The position numbers and the translations under genes were made by a program. 63,233 nt of DNA from Caldisericia bacterium (GTDB taxonomy: Bacteria > Caldisericota > Caldisericia > JAAYUI01): positions 1-63,233 of the forward strand of contig JAGOOK010000004.1 of assembly GCA_017992555.1 (NCBI GenBank). Reading direction: 5' to 3'. A model generated the notes under the pieces. That model saw nothing but the letters and a program-made list of their open reading frames with translations, made no database searches and had not been told where the DNA came from. Shown here piece by piece: positions 10,449-17,824 of the stretch; position 1 is the stretch's first letter; every line of letters starts with the position of its first letter.

Positions 10449-10683
10449 GCAATTTATCAAAAACATGGACGGCAACAAATATCTTGCCACCATTTATTTG
10501 ATACGCAGGGTCACTGGCCTGCAAGAAAAATCCGCAAAGCTCATACCAGGATCACAAAGGTTCATGATAGAGCAATCAATCGACGAGTTTCTCGAGGGGA
10601 AATCCAAGGTTTCCTTTGCAGAAGACGCAACCTGCGACATCCCAAAATTTGCAGAAACCCAGGAAGGCCCAAAAGATAAGTAA
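10426..10683 (+). CDS. rpoZ: RNA polymerase omega subunit (probable)
   Basis: 85 aa with NKYLATI...RRVTGL; conserved gmk-rpoZ adjacency. Confidence 0.7.
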   Translation: MIDRAKIEQFIKNMDGNKYLATIYLIRRVTGLQEKSAKLIPGSQRFMIEQSIDEFLEGKSKVSFAEDATCDIPKFAETQEGPKDK

Positions 10684-11321
10684 TGAGGAGCATTGCGCTA
10701 CTCATCATTTTATCCTACCTGGCAGGCTCTTTTCCATCAGGCTATATCGTTGGCTGGCTTTTTGGGAAAGTAGACATAAGACGTGTTGGTTCGAGACAAA
10801 TAGGTGCTGCAAACGTAACCAGACAGCTTGGGATAAAGGTTGGAGCGCTTTCATTATCGCTTGACCTATTGAAAGGTCTTTTGCCAATGTTTGTTACCCA
10901 TTACATCCTTAAACAACCAATGTGGGTAACCTCAGTGTGTGGCATTGCAGCTGTGTTTGGCCATGATTTTTCGATATTTCTGTCATTCCGGGGTGGCGAG
11001 GGCCTTGCAACATCAATGGCTGTAATATTCTTTCTTGCACCATCAAGGTTTCTGCTGATGGCGCCATTTGCCGTAATAACAGTACTGAGCACTGGCTATG
11101 TGACTCTTGGAGGGATCGTACAGCTATGGGGATATGGCGTCACAACCTGGGTAACAGGATCGCCATTGGCATCAGTTTATTCTGTTATATCGTTGATCTT
11201 GCTCGGTCTGACCAAACAAACCCCGTGGATCATGAAAAACCCGCCAACCCAGTTCATGCAACCTAGCTTTGTGGTTCCCCATTCTGATCCCGTTTCAACA
11301 TTCGAGCAAGACAGTCAGTAG
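10683..11321 (+). CDS. plsY: PlsY-family acyl-phosphate acyltransferase, atypical motifs
   Basis: YLAGSFPSG, DIRRVGS..IGAANVTR, DLLKG, AVFGHDFSIFLSFRGG; motif 2 is GGEG and motif 3 is not recognisable. Confidence 0.8.
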   Translation: MRSIALLIILSYLAGSFPSGYIVGWLFGKVDIRRVGSRQIGAANVTRQLGIKVGALSLSLDLLKGLLPMFVTHYILKQPMWVTSVCGIAAVFGHDFSIFLSFRGGEGLATSMAVIFFLAPSRFLLMAPFAVITVLSTGYVTLGGIVQLWGYGVTTWVTGSPLASVYSVISLILLGLTKQTPWIMKNPPTQFMQPSFVVPHSDPVSTFEQDSQ

Positions 11322-12126: not shown

Positions 12127-15100
12127 ATGAGAGAGTACATACCACTCCTGTCTTCGAAGAAGTTTCAAATTGCTACCCAGGCCCTCAAAGAGGGCAAGGT
12201 GAAATCTATTTTAACGGAGGGGCTTTCTGGGTCAGACCTTTCCATAAATCTCGCCAACATATCATCCATAGAGGACAAGTATGCCATAGTCTGTCCCGAT
12301 GAACAGACTGCATTGAGGCTTTTCCAGGAGCTTGATTCGGTCCTTGAGGATATGCCCATAAACAGACTGCTTTTCCCTGCAAGCGATGCACCACCGCTCG
12401 ACAAGACATCACCATCAACATCAAGCATAAGCTGGCAGATTTCAACACTGTACCAGATACTTGTAAATCCTGGTGCAACAGTTCTTGTTACAAGTCTACA
12501 GGCCCTTTATGATTGCATCATCCCGCCAGACATACTGCAAAATCAGGCAATGATCATCTCAAGGGGCGATCTGCTGTCTGTTCCAAAGCTAAAACAAAAA
12601 CTTGTGGAGCTCGGGTACAAGATAGAGGCACAGGTCGAAAAAGTGGGGGATGCAGCACTCAGAGGTGGAATAATAGATTTTTTCAGCCCCTCTTCCGATC
12701 TTCCCTACAGGATCGAGTTCGATGTCGATGTAATAGACACAATCAGACAAGTGGACCCGGAAACGCAACTGTCTGTCAAGCAGGTCGAATCATGCCTGCT
12801 CCTGCCTGTGTCTCACATATTTCTGGACGAACAGGTATCACAGGAGGCAGTCTCGAGGATTGACATGTTCATGTTAACTGTCAGTCTTCAAAGTAGCGAG
12901 ATGCGCGAAACCCTTAAAAAAGACAAGGATCATATAAACAACCTCGTGCGCTTTACAGGCATGGAGCACTATACGCCATTTTTCTATGGAAAGGCAACAA
13001 GGCTCCTTGATTACATAAAAGACTACATGGTTGTCTGGGTTGATCCAGACAGGATATCGGACGCATACGAACGGTTCAAGCGCGACACGATGGATATCTA
13101 TGTAAATGGCATCAAGAAAGGTGAACTTCTCCCGCAAAAAGAGCTTGATGACATTGAAAGGCTTGAATTCCCGCACATTACCAGACACAATCCATCAATG
13201 CTGATTTATAGCATGAAGGCTCCTGATTCGCCTTCAAAAAACAAAGTGGTCACAATCCAGCATTCGCAACCAGACCCAATGGTCGGGAAGCTCCAGGATG
13301 TTGCATCATTCATTTCCGGAAAAGTGCAGGGTGGTTACAAGATTATCATCGCAACAAAACAGCCCGGCAGGGTAAAGGAACTCATAGAGCTTCAGGACGG
13401 GCTTGTTCCCTCCAAACCTGAAAAGCTGGACGAAGAATCAGCGCCTTTCTTTGACATAGTCAATATGTCACTGGAAAGGGGGTTTGAGGACAGAAGAAGG
13501 AAAGTCCTGCTCCTAACTGATAATGAGCTCTTTGGGTGGAGAAGAAGGATCGGCGCCACAAAAAGATACAGGGGCGGCTCACCCATAAAATCTGTTGACG
13601 AACTCCATCCAGGTGATCTCTTAGTTCACCTGACCTTTGGGATTGGTATTTACAGGGGACTTAAAACCGTAACTGCGGCAGGAATCACAAAAGAATACCT
13701 CCAGGTGGAATATGCAAAGGGAGACAAGCTCTACATACCACCTGAAAGACTTCCATTGATTCATAAGTATCTTGGAAACCCAGAAACAGTAACAATCAAC
13801 AAGCTTGGCGGAAGGGAATGGCCAGAAGCCCTCGCAAGGGTCGCAAGAGGCACCAAGGACATCGCCGCAGAACTGATAAGGCTCTATGCCAGAAGGGAAA
13901 TGTCCAAAGGTTATTCATTCGAGGAAGACACCATCTGGCAACAGGAAATGGAATCGGCCTTTCCGTATGAAGAAACAACTGACCAGCTCAAAACCATCAT
14001 GGAAGTCAAACGAGACCTTGAACGATCAAAACCAATGGACAGGCTTGTTTGTGGTGATGTCGGCTACGGCAAGACCGAGGTCGCAATAAGGGCCGCATTC
14101 AAAGTAATCGTGGCTGGGAAACAGGTAGCAATACTTGTTCCTACAACAATACTCGCACTTCAGCATTACAATACCTTCAAGGAACGTTTTGCCCCGTTCC
14201 CGATAAAGGTGGAACAGCTTTCACGGTTCAAGGGAAAAACCAGCCAGAAAAAGGTTGTGGAAGGTATCACCGACGGATCAATTGAAATGGTCATTGGCAC
14301 CCATCGCCTCCTGCAAAGTGACATCAAATTCAAGGATCTGGGGTTGCTGATAATTGACGAAGAGCAGAGGTTTGGCGTCGAGGACAAAGAGAAGATTAAA
14401 AAGCTCAGAGAAAATATTGATGTCCTGACTCTCACCGCAACCCCAATCCCAAGAACGCTCGAAATGGCGCTGACTGGGGTAAGGGAGATTTCGCAGATCA
14501 ATTCTTCGCCAGAGGGAAGAAAACCAGTCAAAACATATATTCAGGCATATTCGGAAACTGCCGCAAAAGAAGCAATAGAAATCGAGCTTTCAAGGGGTGG
14601 CCAAGTTTACTACGTCAACAATAGGATACAGGGCCTCGGTTCTATCATGTGGAAGCTCAAGAAGATTGTTCCAAATGCAAGGATTGCCATAGCACACGGG
14701 CAAATGGACAGCGACGAGCTCGAGGACATAATGCTCAGCTTCTACAAGGGTGAAATCGATGTGCTCCTGTGCACGACAATCATCGAATCGGGCCTGGACA
14801 TTCCGACCGCCAACACAATAATCGTGGAAAACGCGCAAAACCTTGGCTTGGCGCAGATGTACCAGCTCAGGGGAAGGGTTGGAAGGTCGGAAAAAAGAGC
14901 CTACGCATACTTCTTCTACAACTCTGAAGAGACTCTAACAGAAACGGCCAGAATGAGGCTTGAAGCAATAAGAGACTTCGTTGACCTGGGGGCGGGCCTC
15001 AAGATAGCAATGAGGGACCTTGAGATAAGGGGTGCCGGCAACATGCTTGGTGCAGAGCAGTCCGGGCACATCGCCGCAGTTGGCTACGACCTGTACCTTA

Positions 15101-15603
15101 GATTGCTTGAGGACGCAAAAAAGCAGCTCCAGAAATCACATGATGGAAAACCTATAAGACCGGAGGCGCCACAGCAGGAATGCAATGTTGACCTCAGGGT
15201 TTCAGGTTTCATACCAGAACATTATGTTCCGGACGAAGCGCTGAGGATTGATTGCTACCAGAGACTGGTGAGTGCTGAAACAACCGATCAGGTGAAATCA
15301 ATCGAGCATGAGCTTCAGGACAGATTTGGAAGACCACCACCAGAAGTAGAGTCGCTTTATGAGCTTGTAAAAATAAGGGTTCTTGCGCAATCAATGGGAA
15401 TAAACTCCATCGTCGAGGACAACCTTACACTAAACTTCCACTTTGGGCCAAACGTAAAACTCAGGGAAGACTTCCTGGACAGACTGGTGGCAAGATTTGG
15501 CGAGAGGACCACTGTCAGGCCAAATATGATCAGGATCAGGAAGCAGAGAGACAACCCAGTAAAGCTGGCAAGGGAATTCATCGAGCTTGCCTGCGAGGAC
15601 TAA
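12127..15603 (+). CDS. mfd: Transcription-repair coupling factor Mfd
   Basis: UvrB-like N-terminus (RGGIIDFF), CarD-like RID, GDVGYGKTEV, DEEQRFG, QLRGRVGRS, DLEIRGAGN, TRCF C-terminus. Confidence 0.98.
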   Translation: MREYIPLLSSKKFQIATQALKEGKVKSILTEGLSGSDLSINLANISSIEDKYAIVCPDEQTALRLFQELDSVLEDMPINRLLFPASDAPPLDKTSPSTSSISWQISTLYQILVNPGATVLVTSLQALYDCIIPPDILQNQAMIISRGDLLSVPKLKQKLVELGYKIEAQVEKVGDAALRGGIIDFFSPSSDLPYRIEFDVDVIDTIRQVDPETQLSVKQVESCLLLPVSHIFLDEQVSQEAVSRIDMFMLTVSLQSSEMRETLKKDKDHINNLVRFTGMEHYTPFFYGKATRLLDYIKDYMVVWVDPDRISDAYERFKRDTMDIYVNGIKKGELLPQKELDDIERLEFPHITRHNPSMLIYSMKAPDSPSKNKVVTIQHSQPDPMVGKLQDVASFISGKVQGGYKIIIATKQPGRVKELIELQDGLVPSKPEKLDEESAPFFDIVNMSLERGFEDRRRKVLLLTDNELFGWRRRIGATKRYRGGSPIKSVDELHPGDLLVHLTFGIGIYRGLKTVTAAGITKEYLQVEYAKGDKLYIPPERLPLIHKYLGNPETVTINKLGGREWPEALARVARGTKDIAAELIRLYARREMSKGYSFEEDTIWQQEMESAFPYEETTDQLKTIMEVKRDLERSKPMDRLVCGDVGYGKTEVAIRAAFKVIVAGKQVAILVPTTILALQHYNTFKERFAPFPIKVEQLSRFKGKTSQKKVVEGITDGSIEMVIGTHRLLQSDIKFKDLGLLIIDEEQRFGVEDKEKIKKLRENIDVLTLTATPIPRTLEMALTGVREISQINSSPEGRKPVKTYIQAYSETAAKEAIEIELSRGGQVYYVNNRIQGLGSIMWKLKKIVPNARIAIAHGQMDSDELEDIMLSFYKGEIDVLLCTTIIESGLDIPTANTIIVENAQNLGLAQMYQLRGRVGRSEKRAYAYFFYNSEETLTETARMRLEAIRDFVDLGAGLKIAMRDLEIRGAGNMLGAEQSGHIAAVGYDLYLRLLEDAKKQLQKSHDGKPIRPEAPQQECNVDLRVSGFIPEHYVPDEALRIDCYQRLVSAETTDQVKSIEHELQDRFGRPPPEVESLYELVKIRVLAQSMGINSIVEDNLTLNFHFGPNVKLREDFLDRLVARFGERTTVRPNMIRIRKQRDNPVKLAREFIELACED

Positions 15604-15605
15604 AA

Positions 15606-16823
15606 ATGAACTTTTCCTGGATAATAGAAAAAGAATTGATGATCTCGTCTGCTCCAGAGAATATACAAATGCTTTCAAGGCTCAGAGACACCGGCATAAA
15701 AGCTGTGGTTTCACTTTCCCAGTTACCATTCACTGACAAAGATTTTGAAGATCTGGGGCTTTTCAATCTCAAGCTCCAGATTCCGGAAGATAAACCGCCA
15801 ACACTTGAGCAATTGAGGGAATTCATTTTCTGGTCCGGATTTATGAACAAACACGGATTACCCTTGCTGATTCACTGCCAGGAAGGTTATGAACGTTCTG
15901 CAACACTGGCTGCGTGCTATCTTGCAGTGTTTGCGAACATGACGGCAAACCAGGCAATCGAGGAAGTGCGTGCCATAAGGGGTGACAACTCAATTACATT
16001 TCCCCACAATCAGGAATTTGTCAACGAGTGCGAGTATGTGAAACCACTTTTAACAAACACTTCCGATAACTCTTTCTATGAAGCAAAGCTCCTCATTGAT
16101 CTGCTCAGAAGGCGCTGCCCCTGGGACAGGGAGCAGACCCCTGATAGCATGATGCAAAACCTTCTTGAAGAAACTTATGAGGTCTGGGAAGCAATCAAAC
16201 AGAAAGACATGGCTCACATAGAGGAAGAGCTGGGAGATATTCTGCTCCAGGTGCTGATGGTCTCAAGGATGCTCTCGGAAGAGCAATTATTTAGCGTTGA
16301 AGATGTGATTGTCACAATGCAGGAAAAACTTGTTTACAGACACCCGCATGTTTTTGGGGAGATCAAGACAAAAACGGCCGATTCTGTTCTTGACCAGTGG
16401 AACAGCCTCAAGAAACAGAAAAAAGACAATGGATCGATCAAAGACATCCCGTCTGGTCTCCCGCCACTCGGCAGGGCCGAAAGAATAATGGCCCATGCAA
16501 AGGACCTTGGATTTGACTGGGACAAAACCGAAGGGGTTCTGGAAAAACTAGACGAGGAAGTCAGTGAGCTCAAGGAAGCCATCCAGATCAAAAACAAGGG
16601 CGAGATTGAGAATGAACTTGGAGACGTTTTCTTTGTTTTATTAAATCTGGCCAGATTTCTTGATGTCGGCCCCGAAGTGGCACTTTCAAGAACGCTGGAC
16701 AAATTCATAAAAAGATTTGAAAAGATAGAGAACCATTCAAAAGAAACCGGAAAACCGATTGGCCATATGACTTTGGGGGAAATGGATGAAATCTGGAATA
16801 AGGCCAAAAAAGACCATCAATAG
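15606..16823 (+). CDS. mazG: Fusion: N-terminal dual-specificity (CX5R) phosphatase domain + MazG nucleoside triphosphate pyrophosphohydrolase
   Basis: HCQEGYERS at aa 90-98; then CPWDREQT, EETYEV, EELGDILLQ, RHPHVFG and second EEVSEL/ELGDVFF MazG motifs. Confidence 0.9.
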   Translation: MNFSWIIEKELMISSAPENIQMLSRLRDTGIKAVVSLSQLPFTDKDFEDLGLFNLKLQIPEDKPPTLEQLREFIFWSGFMNKHGLPLLIHCQEGYERSATLAACYLAVFANMTANQAIEEVRAIRGDNSITFPHNQEFVNECEYVKPLLTNTSDNSFYEAKLLIDLLRRRCPWDREQTPDSMMQNLLEETYEVWEAIKQKDMAHIEEELGDILLQVLMVSRMLSEEQLFSVEDVIVTMQEKLVYRHPHVFGEIKTKTADSVLDQWNSLKKQKKDNGSIKDIPSGLPPLGRAERIMAHAKDLGFDWDKTEGVLEKLDEEVSELKEAIQIKNKGEIENELGDVFFVLLNLARFLDVGPEVALSRTLDKFIKRFEKIENHSKETGKPIGHMTLGEMDEIWNKAKKDHQ

Positions 16824-16882: not shown

Positions 16883-17077
16883 GTGAGTTGCAAAAAAACA
16901 AATAGCAACAGGTGTAATTGCACCTATGAACCATGCGAGCGCAAATACAAATGCTGCGAGTGTCTGTCATTCCACAAATCACAAAACGAGCTCCCGGCAT
17001 GTTATTTCACTGCAGAGGAAGAAAAAACCTACGACCGTTCCATAGGTTTTTTCTGTAAAAACCATGTCAAAATTTAA
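16883..17077 (+). CDS. Small Cys-rich protein, DUF6485-like
   Basis: [15 protein letters not shown]....ELPACYF....EKTYDRSI pattern; GTG start. Confidence 0.75.
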
Positions 17078-17780
17078 TCCTTCTCCCTCAATGAATGAAG
17101 GCACATTCGCATCAGAGGTCATCAACAGGTCTCTTCTTTATGGAATTCTAGGCTATCTTCCAGAAGAAATCTGCAATGTTGTTGTTCTCGATGGACCAAA
17201 ACAGACCCAGATGTCACTCATCCTTGAAAATGCCGGCTACAAGGTGGCCAGGATATGCCCGAAAAAGGATGATGATCCAACATGCATAGCTTCAACAACC
17301 GAGGAAATAGACGGAGAAAGTTTCGGAGTTGTGATCTGTCCTGGCTGGCTCTCTGACAATGATGATCCTGAGGAAATATCGAGAGAAGCAATGAGACTTC
17401 TGGTTCAGGGTGGTCTCTTCTTTGGTAGTGTGCCTGGAAGGTTTGCGGCCGCAGTCGACTGCGTCCCTCAATCAATAAGCAACGCGTCAAGCATTGCAAA
17501 CGGAATAGACGAAATCTAGTGGTGGGGTACCAAAGAACTTTTTACCCCAAATGATATTGCTTGTGAGCTCGAGGCCATCGGTTTTGAGGTTGTCGACTTT
17601 TATGGATGGGAGCACGCTCTGACAAAACTACCTGGCGAAAAGCTTTCTGCAACAGACTGGGATGAGGGCTTTTTTGAAGACTTTTTAGAGCTGGAATTCA
17701 GGCTTGCCCAGGAAAGATCAATCCTTGGCATGGCCCCAACAATCCAGTTTGTGGCAAAAAAACCAAACCCAGAACCATAA
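17064..17780 (+). pseudogene. Class I SAM-methyltransferase-fold ORF (238 codons) interrupted by in-frame TAG at 17517-17519; pseudogene or read-through gene
   Basis: Frame stays open 86 codons after the TAG (WWGTKELFTPNDIACELEAIGFEVVDFYG...ELEFRLAQERSILGMAPTIQFVAKKP) to TAA at 17778-17780, just before a terminator; no separate start for the 3' half. Confidence 0.7.
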
Positions 17781-17799: not shown

Positions 17800-17824
17800 A
17801 AAGGCCCTCCATTGGAGGGCCTTT
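17800..17824. terminator. Intrinsic terminator between convergent operons
   Basis: AAAGGCCCTCC-ATT-GGAGGGCCTTT with A-run upstream. Confidence 0.85.

Follow-up and report, generated by a model that had tools for sequence, protein, structure and literature searches.

Why would a pyrophosphohydrolase of the MazG family carry a cysteine phosphatase at its N-terminus? The question is raised by one gene in a 63,233-nucleotide (nt) stretch of DNA from a Caldisericia bacterium (positions 1 to 63,233 of contig JAGOOK010000004.1, GenBank assembly GCA_017992555.1; hereafter the window). An initial annotation, made from the letters alone, had described the gene as a dual-specificity phosphatase (DSP) with a CX5R active site joined in frame to a two-domain MazG, and had not recognised the architecture. 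We found that the fusion is a real, ancient and clade-typical architecture: MazG enzymes and phosphatases of the protein tyrosine phosphatase (PTP) fold are each well known, and their fusion is unstudied. The reading that we favour, with moderate confidence and from sequence comparison, is that the gene encodes the lineage-typical housecleaning MazG of Caldisericota, to which an accessory and dispensable phosphomonoesterase domain is attached.

The open reading frame (ORF) at 15606-16823 on the forward strand, on which all features of the fusion gene lie, is open throughout and encodes a single protein of 405 amino acids (aa) followed by a stop codon. Its assignment as a whole DSP–MazG fusion is supported by the translation, by Pfam and NCBIfam, by matches to solved structures and by orthologues. 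Residues 1-150 (15606-16055) make up a VHZ/DUSP23-like cysteine phosphatase domain. In Pfam, a DSP-type cysteine phosphatase was recognised in residues 2-134, with PTP-SAK (PF22784) matching residues 2-126 at 53.9 bits (cut-off 27) and DSPc (PF00782) scoring 44.1 bits (cut-off 33.5). When the sequence was compared with solved structures, residues 2-141 matched 25xa, a 162-aa 'dual specificity phosphatase family protein' (E 2.5e-16), and DUSP23/VHZ was a further match. We also built an AlphaFold2 model of the protein from 16 family members (mean predicted local distance difference test score 81; predicted template modelling score, pTM, 0.62). In Foldseek, the phosphatase half of the model matched VHZ (4erc) with a template modelling (TM) score of 0.85 and a root-mean-square deviation (rmsd) of 1.9 Å, and Tk-PTP and ShufPTP with TM scores of 0.85-0.86; SsoPTP was matched too. 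By these matches, the N-terminal half belongs to the cysteine DSP/PTP superfamily, and its nearest relatives are small VHZ-like phosphatases.

The remainder of the protein consists of two MazG-like domains, which Pfam MazG (PF03819) matched in two stretches with 126 bits. The first domain (aa ~152-275, 16059-16430; Pfam stretch 177-250) carries the motif E188-E189-x-x-E192...E208-x-x-D211, and the second (aa ~287-402, 16464-16811) carries E317-E318-x-x-E321...E337-x-x-D340 and includes a PRA-PH match over residues 311-356. The MazG equivalog PRK09562 matched residues 164-402 with 283 bits against a cut-off of 208, and TIGR00444 scored 248 bits against 148.3. E. coli MazG (3cra) matched residues 169-402 in sequence (E 3.6e-47), and the MazG half of the model matched 3cra_A in Foldseek (E 2.2e-9, TM score on the target 0.73). 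The half thus exceeds the family profile cut-offs and has the tandem domains, the all-alpha fold and the EExx(E/D)...ExxD metal-binding motifs as defined for MazG (PMC10014863).

In what follows, f1 to f7 denote families of Caldisericota (f7 representing the second class) and g-numbers denote genera; the window's genus is g1, in f1. Residues E189, E192, E208 and D211 were invariant in 20 sequences from across the class, and the metal motif of the second domain, a region that aligns with the C-terminal domain of E. coli MazG, was invariant in f1. In the alignment of fused genes, the metal residues of MazG were unchanged regardless of the state of the phosphatase. Given this family membership and the intact metal sites, the tandem domains would be expected to hydrolyse canonical and non-canonical (deoxy)nucleoside triphosphates, (d)NTPs, to the monophosphates, (d)NMPs, and pyrophosphate (PPi), the activity given for MazG enzymes in PMC10014863.

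Two characterised MazG enzymes, those of E. coli (3cra/3crc) and Mycobacterium tuberculosis (Rv1021, 7yh5), share with the window protein the tandem all-alpha domains with EExxE...ExxD motifs. E. coli MazG lacks an N-terminal domain. M. tuberculosis MazG, like the window protein, has an extra N-terminal region, an alpha/beta segment of 85 aa with five strands and three helices (PDB 7yh5, PMC10014863). This segment has no phosphatase annotation, whereas a complete cysteine phosphatase of 150 aa, with CX5R, stands in its place in the window protein; by analogy, the mycobacterial region might be a decayed accessory domain comparable to the remnants described below. A comparable layout is found in YabN of Firmicutes, a bifunctional methyltransferase/pyrophosphohydrolase (NF052436) which also combines an accessory N-terminal domain with tandem MazG domains, and the MazG halves of the two proteins align end to end. 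The N-terminal domain of YabN, however, is tetrapyrrole-methylase-like (PF00590) and not a phosphatase, a contrast drawn in the initial annotation and borne out here: NF052436 matched the window protein with 282 bits (cut-off 525) and at model positions 222-486 only, that is, in the MazG half, and PF00590 did not match. Many homologues of ~480-500 aa combine PF00590 with MazG. Judged by these matches, the window protein is not a YabN.

The fusion is not confined to the window. Full-length orthologues are 90-93% identical in three genomes of its genus and 49-55% identical within its family. Among the 41 relatives compared, a homologue was present in all 40 matching genomes and was full length (~390-415 aa) in f1, f4 and f5. 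A word-indexed protein search with residues 1-150 matched f1 only and was too insensitive for mapping the spread; when 93 genomes of the phylum were searched with the DSP part alone and loci were then fetched specifically, a gene of ~400 aa, either the fusion or its decayed remnant, was found in f1 to f6 and in f7, placed behind mfd in nearly every Caldisericota genome examined. In f3 the gene is split into an ORF with the DSP and the first MazG domain (278 aa) and an ORF with the second MazG domain (125 aa); at L023 (4983-5819 and 5786-6163) these ORFs, which are in different frames, share 34 nt at a purine-rich run (GGAAGAAGAGAGAGAGA). The same layout occurs at L024 and L025 and is kept in two genera; either a true split or a programmed frameshift could account for it. 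One MazG ORF of f7 (L033 1216-2547, genome G088) opens with about six tandem LPGAVML heptapeptides (one with V for M) ahead of a decayed phosphatase-like domain; these repeats may reflect a mis-called start or a repeat expansion.

The window's genome is a metagenome-assembled genome of 70% completeness in 60 contigs. We considered whether the fusion could be an artefact of a chimeric assembly, of a frameshift error or of a wrongly called start. No point in favour of this was found. Dozens of independent genomes have the identical architecture without internal stops; some of these are complete in a single contig, and one is the closed chromosome CP046447.1 described below, so an artefact is extremely improbable. 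The absence from relatives that would have betrayed a chimera is refuted by the same conservation, and the spread across the phylum and into a second lineage also rules out an oddity restricted to one genus or family.

Fusions were also sought outside Caldisericota. When 1.84 billion representative proteins were searched with a profile, the best 150 matches included about eight full-length DSP–MazG fusions, and more distant ones may rank lower; six of the eight were placed, all in Caldisericota or in a Zhurongbacter-like lineage. P0012 is an f1 protein that had also entered the query alignment; P0122 is very similar to the f4-g17 protein of L029; P0126 agrees with L014 from end to end, apart from a single residue and a few additional ones at either terminus; P0140 and the L034 protein are identical; and P0190 resembles the f7-g23 proteins. 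P0125 represents the Zhurongbacter-like clade, with six clusters at 90% identity (the query's included), one of them labelled 'Dictyoglomi bacterium'. Two other architectures were seen among the representative proteins: a Nudix–MazG fusion (P0146, 418 aa) and a protein with four tandem PTP-SAK-type DSP domains (P0264, 603 aa).

A DNA scan of species genomes, for which the MazG motif LRxxCPWD was the sole pattern, had among the matches listed a fusion with a canonical phosphatase site in 'Bacterium 3DAC' (L039 5001-6242), the cultured Zhurongbacter thermophilus 3DAC with the closed chromosome CP046447.1. This organism is a deep-branching thermophile near Coprothermobacterota and Caldisericota that is placed inside Coprothermobacterota in GTDB (PMC10356935). 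Its protein has the same two-part architecture and junction length as the window protein, and its MazG falls on the Caldisericota side of the tree. It differs in its canonical site (HCGAGVGRTG, LPIxDM, RPGSIET..Q) and in not lying beside mfd. The full canonical fusion was found in three of 13 Coprothermobacterota genomes, 3DAC and two related ones, and most of the others matched from residue ~75-110 onward. Three of these others had their ORFs read, and in them the P-loop has given way to a shrunken N-terminal remnant, for example VVVTSNLENALFF as against VLVHCGAGVGRTG in 3DAC. The gene of the Zhurongbacter clade is flanked by an S4-domain gene and by a divergent gene for a membrane H+-translocating pyrophosphatase. 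The latter lies beside the PPi-producing MazG at L038 (3875-5887, a Logan contig), at L039 (2865-4877, 3DAC) and at L052 (4141-6141), the only locus of the Coprothermobacter type for which the flanking genes were read; this could be a functional linkage or a coincidence.

A maximum-likelihood tree was built from the MazG part with 107 rows. Every one of the 72 MazGs without a phosphatase domain lay on the same side of a branch with Shimodaira–Hasegawa-like approximate likelihood ratio test values of 87 and 92. Because the unfused sequences are separated in this way, the data are compatible, with moderate support, with a single ancient origin of the fused lineage. As far as can be judged from these sequences, MazG normally takes this fused form, and has done so since ancient times, in two deep-branching phyla of thermophiles. 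A single ancient event would have placed a VHZ/DUSP23-like phosphatase at the N-terminus, where YabN has a methylase-like domain and some other MazGs a Nudix domain.

Is the phosphatase domain of the window's genus a working enzyme? The nucleophile Cys91 and Arg97 are both retained, and the P-loop H90-C91-Q92-E93-G94-Y95-E96-R97-S98 (15873-15899) has the form HCX5R(S/T), as the initial annotation had noted together with the acid loop I59-P60-E61-D62 (15780-15791). The stand-alone enzymes VHZ/DUSP23, Tk-PTP, SsoPTP and 25xa share with the fused window domain a fold of ~150 aa (TM scores 0.82-0.86, rmsd 1.6-1.9 Å), an N-terminal NFSW motif, an HCxxGxxR[ST] P-loop and an IPD-type acid loop. The window domain departs from them in three places. 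In alignments with canonical relatives and 25xa, Glu61 falls on their near-invariant general-acid Asp and Asp62 on their aromatic residue, and either residue could act as the general acid. Acidic residues occupy the P-loop positions X2 (Glu93) and X5 (Glu96), which is unusual. Finally, the motif R-P-G-S-I-E-T-x-x-Q, which we judged from these alignments to mark the VHZ/DUSP23-like subfamily, is absent: the window has R125-G-D-N-S-I-T131-F-P-H-N135, with Thr131 and Asn135 in place of the Glu and Gln that the canonical relatives and 25xa retain. Glu or Asp is found at X5 in g1 and g3, and Glu also in f7-g22. Myotubularins, which lack the loop Asp, have been proposed to use an Asp at X5 as general acid; together with the acidic X5 residue, this mechanism is a lead and not evidence.

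The same site has taken many states elsewhere in the family. Canonical sites, with HCxAGxGR[ST], the loop Asp and RPGxIET..Q, were seen in the alignments in f1-g2, f5, f6, f3 and Zhurongbacter. The Cys and Arg are kept and other residues altered in g1 (HCQEGYERS, Glu61, Thr131/Asn135), in g3 (FCDQGFDRA, without a loop acid), in f4-g6/g17 (HCKDG[VL][LV]RS) and in f7-g22 (HCYAGLERS). The Cys, the Arg or both are lost in f2, in most of f4 (including a complete single-contig genome of 1,558,103 bp), in f7-g21/g23 and in the Coprothermobacter-type genomes. A regular-expression census of 35 sampled fused genes found CX5R retained in 21, and the tree of these genes requires six or more changes of CX5R state. 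Inactivity of the DSP domain, which the initial annotation had counted as a possible objection, therefore holds for about 40% of the sampled lineages and is not evident in the window's genus, which retains Cys91 and Arg97 and has a low ratio of non-synonymous to synonymous substitution rates (dN/dS).

Selection separates the two conditions. Among the four genomes of the window's genus, dN/dS was 0.06-0.15 for the DSP and 0.07-0.11 for MazG, with similar dN for both (0.03-0.05). In f2, where the P-loop is dead, the N-terminal domains of two species were 34-38% identical and the MazG parts 79-82%, and dN of the N-terminal domain was 4-5 times that of MazG. Because dN/dS in g1 equals that of MazG and dN in f2 is so much higher, a live phosphatase domain is as constrained as MazG, and a dead one relaxed, yet not deleted.

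These data bear on the proposal that the DSP domain of g1 is a pseudophosphatase or nearly dead, serving as a scaffold for dimerisation or stability, as a sensor of phosphate or nucleotides, or as a redox switch through Cys91. The three departures from the canonical site described above would fit it, as would the dead-P-loop relatives, which still hold a scaffold of 110-150 aa ahead of an intact MazG; a precedent for a scaffold role exists in M. tuberculosis MazG, which needs its extra N-terminal region for activity (PMC10014863) and for which a loss of activity or of the dimer has been reported in connection with residues 1-85. However, Cys91, Gly94 and Arg97 are invariant across 16 f1 proteins, neither the P-loop nor the acid loop varies among the four genomes of the genus, and the domain has a dN/dS as low as that of MazG, in contrast to the truly dead versions and their faster evolution. 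The Glu at X5 also recurs alongside the catalytic pair in HCYAGLERS of f7-g22. We regard this proposal as rather unlikely. Since Cys91 and Arg97 are kept under strong purifying selection, the domain of the window's genus is better read as a working, non-canonical accessory phosphomonoesterase.

If so, what would it act on? The likely substrate may be a phosphomonoester small molecule of the nucleotide type, such as the NMP product of MazG, whose removal would make the clean-up irreversible. We put this forward tentatively, because the other partners of MazG are nucleotide-directed, because Pfam places the domain nearest to the PTP-SAK/Tc-R-P/PTP-NADK clades and because canonical members have the general-acid Asp. 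Those partners, at the N-terminus of close MazG homologues, are Nudix (P0146) and the tetrapyrrole-methylase-like domain of the YabN type. In both domain families, the best-known representatives have nucleotides or RNA as substrates. The acid-loop Asp, nearly invariant in the alignment of canonical members, fits a phosphomonoester rather than a phosphoanhydride; PPi or a triphosphate is therefore a less likely substrate, a point that does not apply to g1 and g3, in which the Asp is replaced.

The same Asp is also typical of enzymes acting on phosphorylated proteins, and the domain could instead be a protein phosphatase for phosphotyrosine, phosphoserine or phosphothreonine that regulates MazG or Mfd-linked stress responses, or that is merely co-expressed, with fusion serving co-regulation. 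The closest folds and sequences, VHZ/DUSP23, Tk-PTP, SsoPTP and Cdc14, point in this direction, and f1 genomes have 5-9 Hanks-type kinases (PF00069) each, compared with 1-3 in other families. As a discriminator, this census was uninformative, since kinases occur in all families. Many of the kinase domains of the f1 genomes (G000-G010) lie in ORFs of ~1200 aa. On the other side, the best Pfam match is not to generic DSPc, the known other fusion partners of MazG come from families acting on nucleotides, and the window's genome already has a stand-alone canonical DSP. We hold a protein phosphatase to be possible but improbable. The stand-alone DSP (158 aa; G000:C25:43700-44176, L056 1977-2453) has the P-loop HCHAGMDRTG and the loop PMPDE and is 27% identical to the fused domain.

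Several observations weigh against the reading of a nucleotide-directed accessory enzyme. Taken together, the departures at Glu61, Glu93/Glu96 and Thr131/Asn135 mean that the domain may be slow or inactive. The nearest solved relatives VHZ, Tk-PTP and SsoPTP have been studied as protein phosphatases, and the kinases of f1 genomes make protein substrates available. The geometry between the domains is only moderately confident in the model (pTM 0.62). The Cys and Arg have been lost repeatedly beside an intact MazG, so that any chemical coupling between the two halves must be optional. The initial annotation had put forward two-step nucleotide sanitation, alarmone turnover and phospho or redox control of MazG as possible roles. 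Of these, an obligatory two-step route from NTP through NMP to nucleoside is weakened by the losses, and an optional one is compatible with them. Phosphatase chemistry is accordingly not needed by the MazG core, and relatives that have lost it retain the domain as an eroding scaffold. A stronger version, in which the fusion arose as an ancient bifunctional sanitiser whose cysteine phosphatase dephosphorylates the (d)NMP from MazG or another phosphorylated nucleotide, is in our judgement doubtful. If true, it would couple a PTP-fold enzyme to an all-alpha NTP pyrophosphohydrolase, a pairing so far undescribed, and the decay to pseudophosphatases would mark lineages that passed the second step to other nucleotidases.

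The accessory-enzyme reading also takes in the position of the gene. Upstream on the forward strand lies mfd (12127-15603), which encodes a transcription-repair coupling factor of 1158 aa (TIGR00580, 1041.9 bits, cut-off 800). The junction (15596-15608) consists of a Shine-Dalgarno-like GAGGA, the mfd stop codon TAA at 15601-15603, 2 nt and the ATG at 15606, so the fusion gene stands directly behind mfd as first described. A terminator-like or strong promoter-like site was looked for between the two genes and none was seen. The layout of the junction suggests translational coupling of the fusion gene to mfd. In 32 of the 35 fetched Caldisericota loci, an ORF with Mfd motifs ends between -44 and +6 nt from the MazG start; the exception is f3, in which the gene does not adjoin mfd. 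We infer that the fusion gene is co-expressed with mfd, probably by translational coupling, and would belong to a genome-maintenance operon. In Bacillus, yabN is found downstream of mfd at a distance of a few genes. In M. tuberculosis, mazG lies behind mfd as in the window, a pairing reported in a preprint (bioRxiv 10.1101/2020.02.10.941963). Elsewhere around the locus, the window has a PlsY-like ORF at 10683-11321 (117.6 bits, under the PlsY equivalog cut-off of 137.2) and, downstream of the fusion gene, a 151-aa ORF at 17064-17519 without an NCBIfam match. A bidirectional terminator-like hairpin with a perfect 11-bp stem (17800-17824) separates the latter from convergent ymdB-like, rny and recA genes.

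A search for a phosphatase–MazG fusion found no paper describing one in the library covered, and in this sense the architecture is as unrecognised as the initial annotation had it. It is, however, no rarity, being the standard MazG of a whole phylum and a neighbouring lineage with many database entries, which public sources label only as MazG (MazG family protein) or nucleoside triphosphate pyrophosphohydrolase. The finding is of moderate importance, as it touches no long-standing open question. The family offers a clean natural series from enzyme to pseudoenzyme, with about six losses of CX5R on one scaffold. Both states are open to bench work, since a canonical member is available in a cultured organism (3DAC) and a decayed member, shortened to 352 aa (L019), in a genome that is complete in one contig. 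Should the phosphatase act on nucleotides, a PTP-fold enzyme would join the sanitation of the nucleotide pool, and a function would be suggested for the N-terminal accessory domains of other MazGs, for instance the extra region of the M. tuberculosis enzyme and the methylase-like domain in YabN.

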